IMG/VR virus record: IMGVR_UViG_2711768001_000013
Direction: 5' to 3' (one strand)
Source: a virus
Taxonomy: Duplodnaviria; Heunggongvirae; Uroviricota; Caudoviricetes
DNA length: 38,859 bases
Below are positions 1 through 30,948 of this stretch, one piece after another. Every line of letters begins with the position of its first letter. Position 1 is the first letter of the stretch. Made by a program: the position numbers and the translations under genes. Under the pieces are notes generated by a model. The model searched no databases, was not told the DNA's origin, and saw only the letters and a program-made list of their open reading frames with translations.

Positions 1-2901
1 CTGAGACAATACGGCCCGACCACTGGCAGGTTTGCCCTTAATCGTCCAGCCACGCATATCAGGGATCACACCTGACGGATAAACGGCTGCAAGTTTCGGG
101 TAAGCAGATTTGTCAAAAGTCTGTCCCTGCATCAGGGCATAACCAGACGGAACGGTATCTGATGGCCACGGGATTGGTGCACCGACTGGGTAGCTTTCTG
201 GTGGAAGATTTTTCGAGGTATAAACTTCTGCCCAGTCTTCCTCAAAACCATAACCGTCTCTTGAAGAACGGTAGAACAGACCACCATTTCTGTAATGCGC
301 CTTCATCTGCAAGGTCCGGCAACTTCCGACTCCGGTATAGAAGTTAACCAGAATATAGCTGTTGCCAGAGCGGGTGACATTGTAAGCGCCTGATTCGGCA
401 TTCCATGGAACGCCACCATCCGCATCGGCATATGTATCCGTTGCCCTTCTGGCAAAAGCAGCCACATGCGCGGCGGTTAAAGTAATATCTTTGGAACCAT
501 CAAACTCAACACCAGAAACCAGTCTTGGCGTTTGCAGCTTTGTTGCTGTCAATGCGTTACCGTTCAGACTTGCAGACAGTTTGGTTCCAATAACCAGTTC
601 GCCGGTTGCGTTATCAATAACAAACGGTCTTAATGTATTCCAGCCACCATAAACATCACCTTGATTGGTAAGCAGCAGGTAAGTTTTAGCGCCATCATTA
701 CGCCATAATGCACCATACTCCCCACCTATCATTCGAATCTGATTACCACCACGCGCTACAATTTCGTCTGTGGCAAAAAGTTTTTTGCACGACAAGTTAT
801 CGTTAACGATTAACGAATGAGACTCATAAAAACCACGCCCACTCTTAAAATCAAGGATAACGTCCGCCGCGATACATTCAGTCGCCGGATTTGTTGCCCC
901 AAACTTATAGGTCGTATCATTAACAACGAGATCAGCACCAGGTGCGGATATTGACAGGCCATCTTCGAGAAACGCAAAAACAGGGAAAGCAGCGCCATCA
1001 ACATAGAACACAGAGCGCAAATCATCGCCCTTATTACTCATCATTATTGAGTGGATGGCTCGTTCATTGTTTTGATATTGCCAGAACATTCCATAAGCAT
1101 AACGCCCCCTGTCAGTCCAGCCACCAGGCATAACAAATCCGTTAAACTCGCAGTTATTCATCGGATCGCCTGCGATTCGCGTTGCCGTGGTGATAATGAC
1201 CCTTGATGCCAGTTCGCTTACTGAGCCAGCAGAACGCATAACAACAACAGGGTAATATTTTCCAGATGTTGCACCTGCAGGAGCGTTAACCCGCACATAA
1301 CGCATACCACGCTTATCAGCAAAGTCTGTTTTACTGACCGCGTTAATGTTGTTCAGGAAGCGTCCCTTATCGGGTATATCAGCGCCGTTCTGGTCTTTCT
1401 GCAGACGTTTCTCAGCATTGTCATTGGCTGCTTTTACTGCCTTTGGCGTTGCCGCCAGCGTTTCAGACGTGCTATTAGTCGCACTACTGAGCTGTACTAT
1501 CCCCTTTTTCGTCGTGCTCGCATCCTCAAGCGCCACGGCGGATGCAATATCCTCTGCACGTTTTGCCGCTGTCTCGGCGCGCGTTGCCGCGGATTCCGCC
1601 GTACTTTTGCTCTGTGCTGCCGCCGTCGCACTGCCAGCAGCCTCTGTCGCCTTCGTGGATGCTGTCGTGGCGCTGCCCTTCGCTGCGGACGCTTGTCTGG
1701 TCGCCTCATCTTTTGAAGCAGACGCCGATGATGCCGATGACGCCGCCGAACTGGCGGACGATGCGGCAGCCGTTTTTGAGGATTCTGCGCTGGTCTCCGA
1801 CGCTTTCGCGTTCGTCTCCGATGTCTTCGCTGCGGAAGCAGACCTCGCTGCTGCACTGGCCTGTTCAGTGGCTTCGCCAGCCTTCGTTGTGGCTGTTGAA
1901 GCGGACGATGCGGCGCTTTCTGCCGATTTTCCGGCGGCGCTAGCACTGGCTGAGGCCTGCCCGGCACTTGTTGACGCTGCACTGGCAGACGACGCAGCCG
2001 CTGTTTTTGAGCCTGCTGCTGCGGAGGCACTCTGTGCTGCTGCCGTTTCAGAGGACTTAGCGTTTGTCTCAGACGTCTTTGCCGCCTTCGCGGAATTTCC
2101 TGCCGCCGTTGCCGAGGAAGCGGCATTACTGGCGCTCGAAGCTGCGCTCGTTTCTGATAATTTTGCCGCCTCTTTTGAAGCCGACGCATCTCTGGCTGAG
2201 GTGGCTGCTTCTGACGCTTTCGTGGTCGCGGTGGATGCAGAAGTGGCAGCTGATTGTTGTGACGCTGCCGCATTCGTTTCTGACGTTTTCGCCGCACCGG
2301 CACTGGTGGCCGCCGCGCTTTTTGAGGACTCTGCAGCGGCAGCACTTTTTGATGCTTCAGTGGCCTTTGCTGATGCCGTTCCTGCGCTGGAAGACGCAGA
2401 CTGAGCCGACGAAGCGGCCTGTCCGGCTGACGTGCTGGCTGCTCGTGCTGAGCCTGCAGCATCAGTCGCACGGGTTGCCGCCTCACGGGCTGATGTGCTG
2501 GCATCGCTGGCTGATTTCTTCGCGGCTGCCGTGTTCTGTGCCACCGCGGACGCGTTACGCGCCACCTCTTCCACCATCAGTTCAAAGCGGCGCAGTGCCT
2601 CAGGACGGGCATCATCCTCCGTCATGGCACCGAGAAAATCATTCAGCGTACCGGGTCGGGAATCTTCATACACGGTGATGGTCCCGGCATGTGACGGCGG
2701 GAATCCTTCCACCAACAGAATAACGCTGTACTGACCGTACTCAACGTCCATGCTGTAACGCCCGGCTTCATCCGGATTTTCTGAGGCCAGCGTGTTCACC
2801 ACCACCGTGGTGCTGTTACGTTTTGCTTTCAGCTGGATTGTGCAGTTCTGTACCGGTTTTCCTGTGCCGTCTTTCAGTACACCTGAAATCTTTACTGCCA
2901 T
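1..2901 (-). CDS. stf: side tail fibre protein Stf, N-terminal ~965 codons; C-terminus lies beyond window start
   Basis: Minus-strand frame from ATG ~2901 ([19 protein letters not shown]...) runs through Ala/Ser/Thr-rich repeats to ...[20 protein letters not shown] at position 1 with no stop. Matches lambda Stf from memory. Absent from the ORF track because it is open at the edge. Confidence 0.8.
1300..2540 (-). repeat. in-frame Ala/Ser/Thr-rich tandem peptide repeats within stf
   Basis: Repeated motifs of the type [14 protein letters not shown] / SAAxSASxAxTSA in the stf frame; the GC-rich repeat DNA produces long spurious ORFs in other frames (1346..2404 +, 1497..2504 -). Confidence 0.7.
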
Positions 2902-2918
2902 ATTCACCCCACAAAAAA

Positions 2919-2938
2919 GCCCGCCTGAACCGGCGGGC
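2919..2938 (-). terminator. intrinsic terminator downstream of lom
   Basis: 7-bp GC stem gcccgcc/ggcgggc with 6-nt loop; run of A on plus strand (2911..2918) gives a T-tract on the minus strand. Confidence 0.55.
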
Positions 2939-2965
2939 TGTCATAACACTGTGTTACCTGGCTAA

Positions 2966-3565
2966 TCAGAATTTATAACCGACACCCACGATGAAACCGT
3001 CAGTGCGCCAGTCGCCACTGCCGGAGCCTTCATAAGCAATATCAATGGCCACGGATTCGGTCGGGTTAAACTGCACGCCAGCTCCCCACGCCAGAGACGT
3101 GTTGCTGTGGCGACCGTCATCACTTCCGGTCAGCACATCGTGCGTTTTCCCCTTGTTGTCAGTTACGCGAAGATAATCCCCGGAGAAAGTCGACACACGG
3201 CTGTAAGCCACACCCGCCATCGCATACGCGCTGAACCATTCATTCACGCGCACAGACGGCCCCGCCATTACGCTGAACCAGCGGTTACGAACGGAATCTT
3301 CATGCCAGCGGGTATCGCTGTAACGGGTCAGCTGGCGATTCTTGTCTCCTGCATAGCTGAATGACGTCACCAGCCCCAGTGTGTCCGTAAACTCATAACG
3401 GTATTTCACGTTAATCCCGTTCAGATCATCACTGCCGGGGACGTTCGTCGAGGCATGAAGATACCCCGCGCTCAGCGTGGACTGATGTTCAGACGCCCAT
3501 GCAGGCGCACCGGATACGGCCAGGCAAATGGCTGCGGACAAAATTGCTGCACAAACTTTACGCAT
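2966..3565 (-). CDS. lom: outer-membrane protein Lom (Ail/OmpX family)
   Basis: 199-aa ORF MRKVCAAILSAAICLAVSGAPAWA... with signal peptide, ending ...IVGVGYKF; recalled as lambda Lom; sits between J and stf as in lambda. Confidence 0.9.
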   Translation of the reverse strand: MRKVCAAILSAAICLAVSGAPAWASEHQSTLSAGYLHASTNVPGSDDLNGINVKYRYEFTDTLGLVTSFSYAGDKNRQLTRYSDTRWHEDSVRNRWFSVMAGPSVRVNEWFSAYAMAGVAYSRVSTFSGDYLRVTDNKGKTHDVLTGSDDGRHSNTSLAWGAGVQFNPTESVAIDIAYEGSGSGDWRTDGFIVGVGYKF

Positions 3566-3595
3566 AATTACCTCTCGCTTTTCTGCAATAAAAAA

Positions 3596-3613
3596 GGCGT
3601 CATTCCTGACGCC
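3596..3613. terminator. bidirectional hairpin between J and lom
   Basis: Stem ggcgtca/tgacgcc with loop ttcc; A-run upstream (3589..3595) and T-rich ctttatt downstream. Confidence 0.5.
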
Positions 3614-3635
3614 CTTTATTGGGGTTATAAATATT

Positions 3636-6600
3636 TCAACGAATACTGATGCCGGAAGCGGCTTTTTTGGTCACAATCACCGTACAGTCGGTGATATTGC
3701 CTGCCCCCTGATTGCCTTTCTGGAAAATCTTAAACTCCAGAGTGACGCTTCCCCTGCCACTCGGCATATCAATAACTGCACTGTAACTACCGGGAATGGC
3801 CCCTTTAGTTTCTCTGGATGCGATTAATACGCCGTTTTTGCGAACTTCAAAACCATAACCCGTGTATCGCGTGCCTCCTGGGTTATTTCCGCTCCCCGGA
3901 TCGTCATACGCTATACCGTTAAAAATAATGGGCGGAATAATAATCTGGCGGTCAAAGTTATGATCATCGCTGATGGTGACTGTAACCGTACCGTTTGGTG
4001 TTTCCGTGTTACCCCACGTACCGACTTTTTTCGGGAAGGCTTTTGATACAGCTTTAACGAAATCTCCTCTGACCTGGGTCGCCTCCAGCATGCCCTTAAT
4101 CGTACAGTTCTGGTTAATCGTGACATTGTTGAGCGTCCCTGAATTTGCATTCACATTACCGCTGATATCCGCATTTTTAGCGGTCAGCTTTCCGTCTGGT
4201 GTCAGGGAAAATGCCGGCGGATTTCCACCGCTGGTAATGGTGGGAGCCGTCAGGCGTTTCAGGAACACGTCATTCATGAATATCTGGTTGCCCTGCGCCA
4301 CAAACATCGGCGTTTCATTCCCGTTTGCCGGGTCAATAAACGCGATACGATTGGCGGCAACCAGAAACTGGCTCAGCTTGCCTTCCTCCGTGTCCTCCAT
4401 GCTGAGGCCAATACCCGCGACATAATGTTTGCCGTCTTTGGTCTGCTCAATTTTGACGCCCCACATGGCATTCCACTTATCGTTGGCGTCCTTCCACTCT
4501 TTCGAAAACTCCTCCAGTCTGCTGGCGTTATCCTCCGTCAGGTCGACTTTTTCCAGCAGCTCCTGGCCGAGATGGGATTCGGTTATCTGGCCTTTGAAAA
4601 AATCCAGGTAACCTTCCGCATCATCGCTCGCCCGACCGACAGCCTCCACGAATGCTGATTTGCCGACGGTGTTCACACTGCGGATATAAAAGTAATAATC
4701 ATGGCCCGGCTTAATATTGATACTGGCGGCTATCCAGTACAGCCCCGTGCCAAGGTAGCGGGCTGTGGTTTCAACCTGCCTGATATCCGCAATCCGTTTT
4801 TCCGAGAACCAGAACTCAAACTGTACCGTCGGGTCATAAACCGCAAGATGCGGCGTGGCGGTTATCTGAAAATAGCCCGGCGTCAGCTCAATCCGCGACG
4901 GCGCTGCCGGTGCGGCAATCCGGAACGATACCGACGCCGGATCGCCCTGCTGCCCCCACGCATTTACTGCCCGGACTGTCAGCCTGTAGTTCCCCAGAGC
5001 CAGTTGTGTGAAGCGGTAAGTGGTTTCCGTCGTCCGGGCCGTGCTGACCAGCCGCTCACGGCCGTCATCCGCTGCCACGGTCAGGCGAAGCAGGAAGCTC
5101 ACGCCCTTCACCACCTTCGGCGTGTCCCAGCGGGCCAGCACCTGGTATTCCCCGCTGTCTGCGGTGACTTCTGCGGTCAGGTGCTGCACCGCTGGCGGCG
5201 TGACACCATTTACCGTGCCGCTCTGGTCGCCGTCAAAGTGCGCCCCGTTATCCACGATGGCCTCTTTTTCCGGTACATGCTGCACGGCAGTGATGGCATA
5301 CGTGCCGTCGTCGTTCTCACGGATACTCACGCAGCGGAACAGGCGCTGGCGCAGCGTCGGCAGCTTCAGCCCCCATACGCTGTATTCAGCAACGCCGTCA
5401 GGAACACGGCTCACTTTCACCTTCACGCCGTCGGTGACGGACTGAACCTCCACGCTGACCGGACTCCCCTGCCCGTCAACCAGGCTTATCAGCGTGGTGC
5501 CGGAAGATGGCAGCGTGATTTCACGGTCGAGCGTCAGCGTCCGGGTCTGGCTGTTTACCGCCAGCACGCGCCCGCCGGTGCGGATACCGGCATAGTCATC
5601 ATCGCAGATTTCAATGACATCGCCCGGTACATGGCGAAGCCCTTCGGCACCCACGCTGAAGTCCACGGTCTGCGTTTCCAGCAGTTCTGTTTTAATCAGC
5701 CACAGCCCGGCGCGGTGTGCCTGCCCCCGGCTGGTACAGCCAAAAGCATCCATCTTCGTGACGTTACGACCGTAACGGGCAATGGCCTGCGTGTCCTCCA
5801 CAAGCTCTGTCGCCGTCTCCCAGCCGTTATTCGGGTCAATCCAGTTCACCTCAACGGCATTATGGCGGTCTTTCAGGGCGCTGAAGCTGTAGCGGAACGG
5901 CGCACCATCATCCGGCATCACCACATTACTGCGGTTATAGGTCCACACCTTATCCGACGGTCGGTCCTGCACGAACGTCAGCGTCTGCCCGTTCCATACC
6001 GGCATACAGCGCATCGCCGAGCAGAAATCACTGAGCACATCCCACGCCTTGCGCTGTGTGGTCAGGTACGCATTACAGGTGATGCGCGGCTCCGTGCCGC
6101 CAAAACCGTCCGGCACCGACTGATCGCAATGCTGGCCGATGACATACAGCGCCCATTTGTCCACATCCNCCACAGACACCAGGCCATGTTGTTGCTGTAT
6201 GCTGGCTTAAACGTTCCGTCCCAGATACCGCTGTATTGCCGCGTCTGCGGGTTATAGCTCGACGGCACCTGCAGAATGCGCCCGCGCAGATGATAATTAC
6301 GGCTCACCTGCTGGCTGCCGAACTGCTCCGAATCCACCTGCACGCCGACCAGTGCCGTGTTCGGGTAGCACTGTTTCACATCGATGATTTCGGTGTATGA
6401 CGACCAGAGCGTTTTGTTCTGCAGCTGGTCTGTGGTGCTGTCCGGCNGAGGTGGTTTCCACCAGTGCCTGTACACCGAAGGTAAAGCGCAGACGGTCGAT
6501 GTTTGCCGACGTGATGGTCCGGGTGATCGGCGTGTCGTATTTCACTTCCGTACCCAGTACCGTCTCGGAACCTGATGATTCAAATCCCTCCGGCGGTGTC

Positions 6601-23611: not shown

Positions 23612-24097
23612 TCAGTGACTTAAGGTTGTGATTCCGGAGGAGTCTTCAGAGAACCAGTAATTCTTCCTGGTAGCTTTCCTTTGTAGGTTATCCNNNNNNN
23701 NNNNNNNNNNNNNNNNNNNNNNNNNNNNNNNNNNNNNNNNNNNNNNNNNNNNNNNNNNNNNNNNNNNNNNNNNNNNNNNNNNNNNNNNNNNNNNNNNNNN
23801 NNNNNNNNNNNNNNNNNNNNNNNNNNNNNNNNNNNNNNNNNNNNNNNNNNNNNNNNNNNNNNNNNNNNNNNNNNNNNNNNNNNNNNNNNNNNNNNNNNNN
23901 NNNNNNNNNNNNNNNNNNNNNNNNNNNNNNNNNNNNNNNNNNNNNNNNNNNNNNNNNNNNNNNNNNNNNNNNNNNNNNNNNNNNNNNNNNNNNNNNNNNN
24001 NNNNNNNNNNNNNNNNNNNNNNNNNAAACCAGTACCCGGCACTACCTGCTGAGGTGCCATAGGCGACACCCGTTGTTAACTTATCCATGGATTTCAT
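23612..24097 (-). CDS. S: pinholin (S21-like), interrupted by the N-run
   Basis: [24 protein letters not shown] dual-start N-terminus reads into the N-run; a basic in-frame tail ...[26 protein letters not shown] emerges after it. Confidence 0.65.
23694..24025. other. run of 332 N (assembly gap or masked sequence)
   Basis: Literal n characters in the sequence. Confidence 1.
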
Positions 24098-24164: not shown

Positions 24165-25217
24165 TTATTTCCCCACCAGCTCGTTTATCTCTTTCACTGT
24201 CTGATTAAACCGCTCTGACTCAAGCTCAACACCTAAGGCCCGACGCCCCAGCGCCATTGCTGCTTTTATTGTGGAACCGGATCCCATAAAAAAATCAGCA
24301 ACCAGATCACCTGGTCGACTACTGGCATTGATTATTTGCCTGAGCATATCCGCCGGTTTCTCACACGGATGTTTCCCCGGGTAGAACTGAACGGGTTTAT
24401 GCATCCAGACATCGGTATAAGGCACGGAGACTGATACGGAGAAATAGCGCCGGAGAGATTTAAACTCATCCAGCAATTCAGAATATTTACGATTCAGTGA
24501 ATCATAAGATGCCACCAGCTGGTGGTGTGGTTGTTCCAGTTGTTGTTCCTGAAACTTCTCTGCCGCTATACGGGAAAACAGTGCCTGTAACTTCCGATAG
24601 TCAGCCTCATTCGGCAACTGCCACTGACTGGCACCAAACCAGTGGGAAACCATATTTTTCTTACCTGTGGCTTCGGCAATTTGTTTTGCCGTTATACCCA
24701 GTTCGGCACGAGCATCCCTGAAATACGATATCAGCGGTGCCATTATGTGCTGTTTGAGTTCCCTTTCTTTTGCCGCATAGCCGTCACTTTTGCCGCGATA
24801 TGGCCCCTGGTAATGTTCAGCAAACAGAACGCGCTCTGTGGCAGGAAAATATGCGCGCAGACTTTCTTTATTACACCCATTCCAACGTCCGGACGGCTTC
24901 GCCCAGATGATATGGTTAAGCACGTTGAAACGTTCACGCATCATGATCTCAATATCAGATGCCAGGCGATGCCCACAGAACAGGTAAAGGCTTCCGGCAG
25001 GTTTCAACACCCGCCAGAACTGGGCCAGACAGTGGTCCAGCCACTTAAGGTAATCTTCGTCCCCTTTCCACTGATTGTCCCAACCGTTGGGTTTCACCTT
25101 GAAGTAAGGCGGATCGGTAACAATCAGGTCAATGGAATCATCAGGCAGGGACTGAATAAAATGCAGGCAATCAGCGTTGATTAAATCAACACTGTTTATT
25201 TTTACAGTATTTTTCAT
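24165..25217 (-). CDS. orphan DNA methyltransferase, beta-class N6-adenine/N4-cytosine
   Basis: DPPY motif near the N-terminus ([10 protein letters not shown]) and FxGxG AdoMet motif near the C-terminus (DFFMGSGST); no adjacent restriction gene. Confidence 0.8.
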
Positions 25218-25367
25218 GGATCAGTAAGCGTAACTCTGGTAGGCTCACTCTGCTTTTGCGCTAAAGCAGTGGGCCGTGGTTCGCTTGTGACCAGTAAGCA
25301 TGAGCGAATGGCTGGCAGGTGCTACCAACACCCACCAGCCGCCCATTTTCACAGCAGGAAACCGCCA

Positions 25368-25571
25368 TTACTGGCAGCGTCTGAATTTATTCCCGTACCC
25401 GCCGTTATCCTTCGCCAGACCCGCCAGAACTAACTGAGTCAGTATTAACTGGCACCGGGCTTCGCTTACTCCGGTAGTTCTCGTCATCATGCGTGGCGTT
25501 ACCCACTTGTCAGCAGGTAAGAAATGAAGGACTGCGGCGGCGGTTTCTGTCATATCTTGCTGTTTTAGCAT
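25368..25571 (-). CDS. small hypothetical protein, possibly winged-helix
   Basis: AAGGGAaaaagacATG start (MLKQQDMTETAAAVLHFLPADKW...); no family recognised. Confidence 0.4.
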   Translation of the reverse strand: MLKQQDMTETAAAVLHFLPADKWVTPRMMTRTTGVSEARCQLILTQLVLAGLAKDNGGYGNKFRRCQ

Positions 25572-29091: not shown

Positions 29092-29481
29092 TCAGGCGGC
29101 TGCACCCGCCGGTTTCTCATACTTACTGATAGTGATCTCGACCTTCCCTTTCTGGATAACCGGTCCCCACTCCACCAGCATTCTTTTCACCTGGCTGTCG
29201 TCTTCCCACACCCCCGCGTGGGTCAGGGCGTCAAACAGCGCCTTGTTATAGTTGTCCAGATCGCGGATCCGGTTATCCGGAGGAAACAACACGATCTCCA
29301 CTGAAGCAGGTGCCGACGTTGGTTTTGGCAGACGACGTAACTGCTCAACTATTGCTGCGCACGCCGCGCTCTGAAATTTTCGCCCCGCCGCGCTTATCAG
29401 GCTCTTACCAGCAAATGCCCCTTTGTTGGGGTGTCGCCAGTACGTGTTCACGCTGGGCGGGAAAGGCAGGATCAGCTTCAT
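29092..29481 (-). CDS. rusA: Holliday-junction resolvase RusA
   Basis: 129-aa ORF MKLILPFPPSVNTYWRH...DLDNYNKALFDALT..., like RusA from memory. Confidence 0.8.
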   Translation of the reverse strand: MKLILPFPPSVNTYWRHPNKGAFAGKSLISAAGRKFQSAACAAIVEQLRRLPKPTSAPASVEIVLFPPDNRIRDLDNYNKALFDALTHAGVWEDDSQVKRMLVEWGPVIQKGKVEITISKYEKPAGAAA

Positions 29482-29804
29482 ACTTTCAGGCCTCTCTCAT
29501 GTAACCAGTGGGTTGCACGCAGCCTGGCGTTTTCCTCACCGGCAAGCAGTGAGCGGATAATCCCGACCGCCTCGCTGTCGTCGTCCTTCACCGCGGTATG
29601 AAGAGTGATACCCCGGGCCATGCCACGCTTTATCGTGATGACGCCTTTTTTCTCCAGTGCGCGAAGATGTTCCACCGCTGCATTCACTGAACGGTATCCC
29701 AGCATGGTTGCCACCTCCTGATTGGTTGGCGGGAAGCCACGTTCTTTCTGGTAAGAAATCAGCATATCCAGCACCTGCTGCTGGCATTGAGTTAACGTCG
29801 TCAT
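29478..29804 (-). CDS. LexA N-terminal DNA-binding-domain-like protein, no peptidase domain
   Basis: MTTLTQCQQQVLDMLISYQKERGFPPTNQEVATMLGYRSVNAAVEHLRALEKKGVI parallels the LexA N-terminus; only 108 aa. Confidence 0.6.
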   Translation of the reverse strand: MTTLTQCQQQVLDMLISYQKERGFPPTNQEVATMLGYRSVNAAVEHLRALEKKGVITIKRGMARGITLHTAVKDDDSEAVGIIRSLLAGEENARLRATHWLHERGLKV

Positions 29805-30454
29805 GCCGCCATCTCCCTGACCAGTTTTTCCGCCTGCTGGCGAACCTGCGCCAGAAACGCCTCACCACATGCCTCAAGTTCATCGCGCCCGATGTAGCTG
29901 ATTGCCGGTCCCTTCCAGGTCTTGTCGAAAACAGCAATAGCACCAGCGAAGAAAGCGCCTGTCGGCACCTGCTTCTCGTCCTTCGGGATAAACCAGGCAG
30001 GCAGTTCAAAACCAATACGCCCGCGAATAAAAGCAATATGATCTGCATCTTCCGGCCACCACACTTCGCTGGTGGCAGCTTTGATCAGGAAAACATAGCG
30101 TCCGCCCTTATCACGCATGGCACTGGCATGTTTCATGATGTAACGCATGCCGGTGATGTATTGCCCTTCATGCTGACTGGCGCGGCTGTACGGGGGATTA
30201 CCAAAGGCAGCACCTTTAAGCTCCGCAAGACGTTCAGACCAGTCATGCGCCAGCGCGTTGTCTTCCGCAGTGTAATAAGCGGCACATTTGGCGTTATCAC
30301 CATCAGTGAACAGATCCAGAACAAACGGGCCAAACAGGGTGTTAATTCCCCAGAAAATGTTATCCGGCGTGCGCCACTGATCGCCCACTTCCTTCAGTTC
30401 ATGGGCTGGTTTGTTCCGCAGCTCCACCAGCGCCTGGCAATATTTATTACTCAT
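29801..30454 (-). CDS. phage Dam-type DNA N6-adenine methyltransferase
   Basis: NPPY motif (FGNPPYSRA) preceded by DLFTDGDNAK; start MSNKYCQ... Confidence 0.75.
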   Translation of the reverse strand: MSNKYCQALVELRNKPAHELKEVGDQWRTPDNIFWGINTLFGPFVLDLFTDGDNAKCAAYYTAEDNALAHDWSERLAELKGAAFGNPPYSRASQHEGQYITGMRYIMKHASAMRDKGGRYVFLIKAATSEVWWPEDADHIAFIRGRIGFELPAWFIPKDEKQVPTGAFFAGAIAVFDKTWKGPAISYIGRDELEACGEAFLAQVRQQAEKLVREMAA

Positions 30455-30948
30455 TAAGCCCCCACGTAATTCCCTGACAGATACCACTCTTCACCCGATG
30501 CAGCGCGCTTGCTGCTTTTCCGTAAGCACCGCTCACGACGCGCCAGAAAATTGTTTCGTTCTGGCTGGGAGTGGCTTTCACGGAATGCCGCCATCCACAC
30601 CGTTGCAGCACGACGGTATAAGCCCCTGGACTCCAGTTCTTCCGCCTGGCGGGTCAGGCACAAAATCACCCGGGGATCGTTAGTGCCGACATAGAAATTG
30701 CGCACAGGTCTGGTTTCACGAACTGGTTGTGGTTCCGGCTCCTGCGCTCTCTCAGTCAGGCGTGGGAAATGTCTGCGTGTATCTCCTTCATAACGGTGAG
30801 CCACACGCCCACTCTGACGTAACTTGCTTGCTGACTGCAGAACGCGCTGCCGTGAGTAACCTGCAAAAGCATCCGCAATGTCTCCGGAAGTACACCCCGG
30901 ATGGGCTTCAATGAATTTCTGAACTTCATTCAAAAGACTCATGATCAC
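30454..30948 (-). CDS. PerC/Pch-like regulator
   Basis: C-terminal EELESRGLYRRAATVWMAAF...RRERCL resembles the PerC pattern as I recall it. Confidence 0.45.
   Translation of the reverse strand: MIMSLLNEVQKFIEAHPGCTSGDIADAFAGYSRQRVLQSASKLRQSGRVAHRYEGDTRRHFPRLTERAQEPEPQPVRETRPVRNFYVGTNDPRVILCLTRQAEELESRGLYRRAATVWMAAFRESHSQPERNNFLARRERCLRKSSKRAASGEEWYLSGNYVGA

Follow-up and report, generated by a model that had tools for sequence, protein, structure and literature searches.

A LexA DNA-binding-domain-only protein encoded with a YfdN-type PerC-family protein and a Dam-type methyltransferase in a lambdoid Escherichia coli prophage: a possible stand-in for LexA

Kim and Little are said to have found in 1992 that the free N-terminal fragment of LexA still binds operators, and Neher et al. 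reportedly found in 2003 that this fragment represses SOS genes if it is protected from ClpXP. PerC of enteropathogenic Escherichia coli (EPEC) and PchA/B/C of enterohaemorrhagic E. coli (EHEC) are activators of the LEE1/ler promoter. Among phage proteins, the Bacillus tectivirus GIL01 encodes gp6, a truncated homologue of LexA whose binding site is GaCACAnnTGTGaC and which activates P3, the late promoter (PMC6182141), and methylation of GATC has been reported for M.EcoVT2Dam, a phage homologue of Dam (PMC6602927). Three genes encoding relatives of these proteins lie together in IMG/VR virus record IMGVR_UViG_2711768001_000013, a Caudoviricetes sequence of 38,859 nucleotides that is referred to here, at its full length, as the window. 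Positions 29478-30948 hold exactly three of the listed open reading frames (ORFs), all on the minus strand: a YfdN-type PerC-family gene (30454-30948), a Dam-type N6-adenine methyltransferase gene (29801-30454) and a gene for a 108-residue protein of PHROG 362 that has the N-terminal domain of LexA only (29478-29804). On balance we lean towards reading the three as separately mobile accessory genes, for a YfdN-type regulator, a GATC-methylating Dam and a RecA-insensitive stand-in for LexA. The main question of interest is the role of the widespread LexA-domain-only protein.

The Pfam model LexA_DNA_bind (PF01726) matched the 108-residue protein over model positions 1-65 of 65 (69.5 bits against a threshold of 23.7, E 2.1e-19), the profile phrog_362 matched it at E 4e-59, and a phmmer search of the PDB returned the N-terminal domain of E. 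coli LexA (1lea, E 9e-16). An AlphaFold model (predicted local distance difference test, pLDDT, 82.9) superposed on LexA in the LexA-operator complex 3jso with an rmsd of 1.0-1.2 A (67-70 residues, about 50% identical) and placed a LexA-type winged helix-turn-helix at residues 1-69 (29598-29804, minus strand), with helices at residues 6-22, 28-35 and 40-52 and wing strands at 56-58 and 66-68. The recognition helix reads RSVNAAVEHL in the phage protein and RSPNAAEEHL in LexA. The LexA reading-head residues S39, N41, A42 and E45 were retained and, in the family down to about 40% identity, S39 was invariant and N41 nearly so, both being present in E. coli LexA. Fold, level of identity and recognition-helix residues are thus shared with E. 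coli LexA (1lea, 3jso), from which the phage protein differs in having a helical tail in place of the S24 protease and dimerisation domain. Indeed, no S24 peptidase domain was found in it by Pfam, the protein stops at residue 108, and its score against the LexA equivalog TIGR00498 was 71.3, below the cut-off of 110.95. A sequence-only reading of this stretch had described the product as a LexA DNA-binding domain and nothing else; the domain assignment and the missing protease stood, and the notion of a bare domain gave way to that of a domain followed by a conserved two-helix tail.

The tail comprises the 40 residues after the wing and is specific to the family. In the model it forms two helices, at residues 74-88 and 93-103 (pLDDT about 85), that span residues 74-103 (29496-29585, minus strand), and in a full-library HMMER search homologues only 40-50% identical kept its pattern, hhRxLLxxxxxAxxxAxxWL, in which A97 and L101 do not vary. 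The two helices are a plausible candidate for a dimerisation element that replaces the C-terminal domain of LexA. Residues A88-G89 of the phage protein align with the A84-G85 cleavage site of LexA, and a retained cleavage site, which would make the protein a substrate or decoy for trans-cleavage, was considered. It was rejected: because the Ala-Gly pair lies within a predicted helix and the Gly is replaced by Asn in several members, no cleavage site is conserved.

Judged from its sequence, the 108-residue protein is most likely a non-cleavable occupant of SOS boxes. We infer its DNA target from two things, the retained reading-head residues and the reported binding of operators by the free LexA N-terminal fragment. 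The protein would bind CTGT-type SOS-box DNA and replace LexA while host LexA is cleaved during induction. The immunity repressor of the prophage is an S24 LexA-family protein of the ymfK/e14 type (33708-34382, plus strand), so that induction, which probably proceeds by RecA-stimulated self-cleavage of this repressor, should coincide with the RecA-stimulated loss of host LexA. The early-right genes, the trio included, would then be expressed while host LexA is being lost. If this is true, a non-cleavable phage look-alike of LexA could reshape the SOS response when antibiotics or DNA damage induce Shiga toxin (Stx) prophages. As a separate observation, two of the prophage's genes are related to LexA through opposite halves of it, one encoding the S24-domain repressor and the other the DNA-binding-domain-only protein.

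A strong SOS (LexA) box was found in the window over codons 3-9 of another methyltransferase gene. That gene (24165-25217, minus strand) encodes a 350-residue beta-class N6-adenine methyltransferase similar to M.EcoGI and M.EcoGII (PF01555 N6_N4_Mtase, E 2.2e-42) and sits between Q and the lysis genes. The box, TACTGTAAAAATAAACAGTG (25190-25209, minus-strand reading), was located with a position-specific scoring matrix derived from a set of 20 E. coli LexA boxes; it scored 22.6 bits, in the upper half of the training sites, while the runner-up in the window reached 10.2 and the top score in 100 block shuffles of the window was 19.95. The box reads TACTGTAAAAATATCCAGTT in the homologous methyltransferase gene of phage 1720a-02 and TACTGTAAAAATATCCAGCA (22.9 bits) in that of Klebsiella phage Kp4866-6; each keeps CTGT-N8-CCAG, with the common CCAG half-site, though the residues encoded there differ. 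No promoter was identified adjoining the box at 25190-25209.

In Citrobacter phage phiNP the methylase gene recurs with a box identical to this one, but the annotated nin region contains no LexA-domain gene, and the box is therefore more likely a site for host LexA than a private operator of the 108-residue protein. We regard it as a candidate host-LexA site that both proteins could use. That it might be a dedicated operator of the 108-residue protein was also considered; the idea is weakened by phiNP, which has the box alone, and by a Citrobacter prophage and phage mEp390, which have a LexA-domain gene and lack this methylase gene in the regions read.

Several points weigh against SOS-box occupancy by the 108-residue protein. 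Literature searches on yfdN, on LexA-like phage proteins and on links between SOS boxes and methyltransferases gave no functional study of the trio proteins. The window has just one strong SOS box, and CTGT/ACAG palindromes occur in it at chance level for spacers of 0-16 bases in both orientations. The phiNP arrangement indicates that the box needs no phage protein. The recognition helix departs from that of LexA at two positions, P40V and E44V, so that the DNA specificity may have shifted. The predicted template-modelling score (pTM) of the monomer model is just 0.56. Lastly, GIL01 gp6, the sole characterised phage LexA-domain-only protein, binds a palindrome unlike that of LexA and activates transcription (PMC6182141).

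This last point raises the alternative that the 108-residue protein is a transcription factor of the gp6 type, with an operator of its own, that activates or times late or accessory phage promoters. The two recognition-helix residues unlike those of LexA fit such a role, as does the place of the gene immediately upstream of Q within the delayed-early operon, which is where one would look for a timing regulator. However, S39, N41, A42 and E45 are kept here and gp6 depends on a different residue, K38, through which its specificity has diverged; gp6, though comparable in domain content, also lacks the conserved helical tail of 40 residues seen here, and comes from another phage family with a Gram-positive host. 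Moreover, a search of the window brought up no candidate operator, repeated or palindromic, and the phage already has the Q antiterminator for late control. We hold a gp6-type role to be possible but doubtful.

A stronger form of SOS-box occupancy, in our view unlikely, would have the protein be stable and RecA-insensitive, mimic the N-terminal cleavage fragment of LexA, dimerise through its tail and, once host LexA is gone, restore repression at SOS boxes during lytic growth. If it were true, host repair and mutagenesis would be damped, LexA-controlled antirepressors and bacteriocins of competing elements would be silenced, and the phage's own M.EcoGII-type hypermethylase would be timed through the SOS box in its first codons.

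The second methyltransferase is 81% identical to that of phage 1720a-02. The paper on M.EcoGII, a non-specific adenine methylase, describes the 1720a-02 enzyme as 'very similar' to it (PMC5778455). With M.EcoGI and M.EcoGII, which come from prophages of E. coli O104:H4, it shares the beta-class PF01555 domain, and the likeness to M.EcoGII runs through the 1720a-02 homologue; it is thus classed by sequence as an M.EcoGII-like, putative non-specific adenine methyltransferase. Silent in lysogens, M.EcoGII does harm when it is expressed; the paper that describes it makes no mention of LexA or SOS (PMC5778455). The SOS box may explain the silence of M.EcoGII-like methylases in lysogens.

Upstream of this gene, a leader of about 150 nt (25218-25370, minus strand) was better conserved than the adjoining coding sequence among E. 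coli, Citrobacter and Klebsiella phages, a comparison of four sequences, too few for covariation. The fold of the leader contains long hairpins, and in one of them the pairing takes in the segment immediately ahead of the ATG, where no obvious Shine-Dalgarno sequence is seen; no Rfam family matched it at an informative score. Just downstream of the gene lies a run of 332 N at 23694-24025, that is, masked or unresolved bases in which genes are unreadable; single N stand at 6169 and 6447.

The three genes of the trio are flanked by an O-like replication initiation gene (30945-31763, minus strand; HTH_36/DnaD_N, phrog_270 at E 2e-88), which heads this part of the early-right operon, and by rusA, which encodes a Holliday-junction resolvase (29092-29481, minus strand; PF05866, E 2.4e-15). 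The early-right gene order is cII-like, Ash, O-like, trio, rusA, kilA-N, DUF968/HNH and Q, and the earlier placement of the trio in a nin region is fair, given its position between the O-like gene and rusA/DUF968/Q. The junctions are compact. The stop codon of the O-like gene lies 3 nt upstream of ATG 30942 and overlaps GTG 30948, the two possible starts of the YfdN-type gene; the YfdN-type stop and the Dam start share a TAATG overlap; and ATGA overlaps join the Dam stop to the LexA-domain start and the LexA-domain stop to the rusA start. A purine-rich, Shine-Dalgarno-like run precedes each of these starts, and a scan for consensus sequences detected nothing resembling a promoter or a terminator on the minus strand of the three-gene region. 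With such junctions and no promoter-like or terminator-like site, the trio reads as part of one long early-right operon. It would be co-transcribed with the replication gene once the repressor is lost, and its translation would be coupled through the overlapping stop and start codons.

Linkage of the genes was examined in a set of 80 loci from viral contigs in which the LexA-domain gene is 98-100% identical; with identities of at least 98% throughout, these contigs inform on the presence or absence of genes, not on deep conservation. The Dam gene lies upstream of the LexA-domain gene in 53 of the 80 and between the PerC gene and the LexA-domain gene in 51; in 24 the PerC gene is followed directly by the LexA-domain gene, without Dam; and in 79 rusA is directly downstream of the LexA-domain gene. 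More distant relatives vary further. In the Citrobacter prophage, where the LexA-domain protein is 65% identical, PerC is followed by the LexA-domain gene and rusA, and Dam is missing; in mEp390 (47% identical) PerC is missing as well, and a replication gene stands before the LexA-domain gene and rusA. In Kp4866-6 (1363-4201) an ORF for a 656-residue protein resembling C5-cytosine methylases is followed, in the same place before rusA, by a gene whose LexA domain runs on into about 90 residues of unrelated C-terminal sequence. The LexA domain thus recurs, between Kp4866-6 and the window, with differing tails and differing methylase neighbours. The absence of Dam and PerC from related loci indicates that the trio genes are independently mobile and form no functional unit; the sole constant linkage is that of the LexA-domain gene to rusA.

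The same comparison bears on two further explanations. One would make the PerC-like, Dam and LexA-domain proteins a single co-adapted regulatory module, for example for methylation-sensitive control of SOS-type operators. The genes are contiguous, translationally coupled and together, at a coverage of at least 80%, in 1610 of 5426 complete E. coli genomes, as such a module would predict. Nevertheless, Dam is missing from 24 of 80 near-identical loci and from the Citrobacter prophage, mEp390 lacks both PerC and Dam, Kp4866-6 has a C5-type methylase in the position of Dam, and GATC is absent from the SOS box at 25190-25209, all of which makes a module very improbable.

The other would have the LexA-domain protein work with RusA in phage DNA recombination or repair, as a DNA-binding accessory or as a regulator of the resolvase. 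This would explain the constant adjacency and translational coupling of the two genes, which are paired in 79 of 80 contigs, in the Citrobacter prophage, in Kp4866-6 and in mEp390, always with a 4-nt overlap at the junction. Lambdoid nin gene order, however, is strongly conserved through mosaic recombination alone, a winged helix with the reading-head residues of LexA points to sequence-specific binding, and we know of no RusA partner of such a kind. We therefore think a tie to RusA quite improbable and retain SOS-box occupancy as the preferred role.

The Dam-type ORF encodes 217 residues from an ATG; the GTG start at 30487 given in the ORF list overlaps the upstream gene. The ATG start is supported by the REBASE-derived PADLOC model PDLC03263, which covers residues 1-217 of the 217. 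Consistent with the earlier description of a Dam-type enzyme with an NPPY motif, PF05869 scored 155.7 bits against a threshold of 28.1 (E 1.1e-45) and the NCBIfam equivalog TIGR01712, phage N-6-adenine-methyltransferase, scored 255.6 bits against a cut-off of 97.05. The catalytic motif IV, NPPY, is read from the sequence at residues 86-89 (30188-30199, minus strand), within FGNPPYS at residues 84-90, which conforms to the (D/N)PPY motif of phage Dam. A sequence search returned no solved structure for the Dam family. The profiles named beforehand for all three proteins (PerC, LexA_DNA_bind and Dam PF05869) thus gave significant matches, and the objection that the motifs are chance similarities fails.

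The Dam gene has the PerC-like and LexA-domain genes as neighbours, and the second methyltransferase gene is flanked by the lysis genes and by a small ORF in which Pfam found nothing. Pfam detected no nuclease or restriction signature in the genes adjoining either one. The Dam-type enzyme is an orphan methyltransferase with no restriction partner adjacent to it, and the proposal that the prophage carries two orphan methyltransferases, the other at 24165-25217, was borne out, neither having a nuclease-like neighbour. Like the phage Dams of TIGR01712/PF05869, for example M.EcoVT2Dam, the enzyme shows a full-length family match, NPPY, no restriction partner and a prophage location. By analogy with this family its specificity is most likely GATC, and it would methylate GATC on replicating phage DNA. 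Over the window as a whole 144 GATC sites were counted, where a Markov estimate gives 190 (ratio 0.76); this mild deficit, present although the prophage has a Dam-type enzyme of its own, is uninformative on the specificity of Dam.

In the RefSeq phage records NC_003444, NC_019716 and NC_009514, the Dam gene is labelled 'phosphoadenosine phosphosulfate reductase'. PHROG 33262, a profile of 495 positions, was matched solely over its C-terminal methylase part (positions 283-492), and the phosphoadenosine phosphosulfate (PAPS) reductase label, apparently carried over from this profile, is an annotation artefact and no sign of a PAPS reductase domain.

The YfdN-type ORF encodes 164 residues from GTG 30948 or 162 from ATG 30942. 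A GGGGG run resembling a Shine-Dalgarno sequence lies 6 nt ahead of the ATG, which is probably the better start. The motif noticed in the sequence-only reading, LESRGLYRRAATVWMAAFRESHSQPERNNFLARRERCL (LESRGLYRRAA...RRERCL), stands at residues 105-142, and Pfam PerC (PF06069) matched residues 100-151 with 36.1 bits, above the gathering score of 22.6 (E 7.7e-9), as expected of a PerC-like protein; its form is the two-domain YfdN type, not that of a small Pch. The profile phrog_1324, 'transcriptional activator', matched the protein at E 6e-78. YfdN of K-12 (b2357), from the cryptic prophage CPS-53, is 97% identical over 164 residues, and by sequence the window gene is its orthologue.

In the AlphaFold model, residues 5-58 (30775-30936, minus strand) form three helices and a two-strand wing (pLDDT about 72-83), a winged-helix-like N-terminal domain that also gave a weak match to the MarR-type profile phrog_1687 (E 2e-5, residues 8-71). 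Residues 58-81 have a pLDDT below 50, which fits a disordered linker. The PerC domain is a three-helix bundle at residues 92-151 (30496-30675, minus strand), delimited by PF06069, by the model and by residues invariant among homologues, with helices at 92-107, 111-124 and 128-150 (pLDDT above 90). Each half of the protein also stands as a family of its own in PHROGs. A Foldseek comparison with the PDB gave nothing below E 0.3, only weak three-helix bundles of the TPR/MIT kind, which are typically protein-binding modules, and with no significant fold match the winged-helix assignment of the N-terminus is tentative. With a winged-helix N-terminus, a disordered linker and a PerC domain, the protein is presumably a transcription regulator, and it may, as proposed in the sequence-only reading, act on host genes. 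Against the model for ANR (AraC negative regulator, Aar-like; NF033650) the PerC domain (30499-30660) scored 23.6 bits, below the cut-off of 32, a sub-threshold similarity that hints at a distant kinship of PerC with the small helical ANR regulators.

A PerC domain above the gathering score and a prophage or plasmid origin are shared with PerC of EPEC and PchA/B/C of EHEC. In contrast to these small proteins (group 1 pch genes are 315 bp; PMC5931665), the YfdN-type protein adds the winged-helix-like N-terminal domain and linker, and with 162-164 residues in two domains it is not a small single-domain Pch. It differs from the LEE1 activators also in that the literature reports no ler activity for YfdN. 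The gene was called 'the K12 unique PerC homologue' and was deleted merely as a precaution, for a clean ler-lacZ reporter; in the same work PchD and PchE, homologues outside group 1, hardly activated ler (PMC5931665). Over-expression of PchE alters flagella and curli (PMC7369912), the functional data thus concerning other Pch groups. Identity with EHEC pchD (ECs1388) or pchE (ECs1588) was examined with the published cloning primers, none of which matched the window with up to 3 mismatches; the gene is accordingly of the YfdN type, outside the studied Pch groups.

The stretch is already known. The 1471-bp region of the three genes matched 2675 of 5426 complete E. coli genomes, and the 1610 with a coverage of at least 80% were nearly all 95-99% identical. 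Their labels in RefSeq are 'PerC family transcriptional regulator (yfdN)' for the first gene, 'phage N-6-adenine-methyltransferase' for the second and 'LexA family transcriptional regulator/LexA repressor' for the third. From the O-like gene to rusA, a length of 2.7 kb shares 97.3-98.3% identity with Stx2c and Stx2a phages, mEp460, SfV, phiSTEC1575-Stx2k and 1720a-02 (97.6-98.3% for SfV, mEp460 and Stx2c phages); the trio is also present, with the same annotations, in phage cdtI, and its equivalents in SfV are orf40, dam and orf42. The K-12 gene yfdM (b2356) corresponds to the first 89 residues of the Dam protein at 100% identity and is cut just after NPPY, and in CPS-53 the LexA-domain and rusA genes have been lost, in contrast to the intact version in the window. 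By sequence, the trio consists of ordinary, already annotated accessory genes of an SfV/mEp460-type lambdoid E. coli prophage, and since public phage and E. coli records describe the stretch in this way, it adds no novel type of system. The stretch is carried by Shiga-toxin phages and, at an identity of at least 95%, by about half of the complete E. coli genomes, and functions of its YfdN-type and LexA-domain proteins are unreported.

Upstream in the early-right operon, Rfam searches gave two matches above the gathering score on the minus strand, to the C4 antisense RNA at 32277-32364 (82.3 bits) and to the Hfq-binding RNA isrK at 32389-32465 (64.2 bits). Both fall inside the ORF for a 278-residue 'Ash' protein, which suggests an RNA immunity or antitermination element of the P1/P4 type within this ORF and a long ORF call that is partly spurious.

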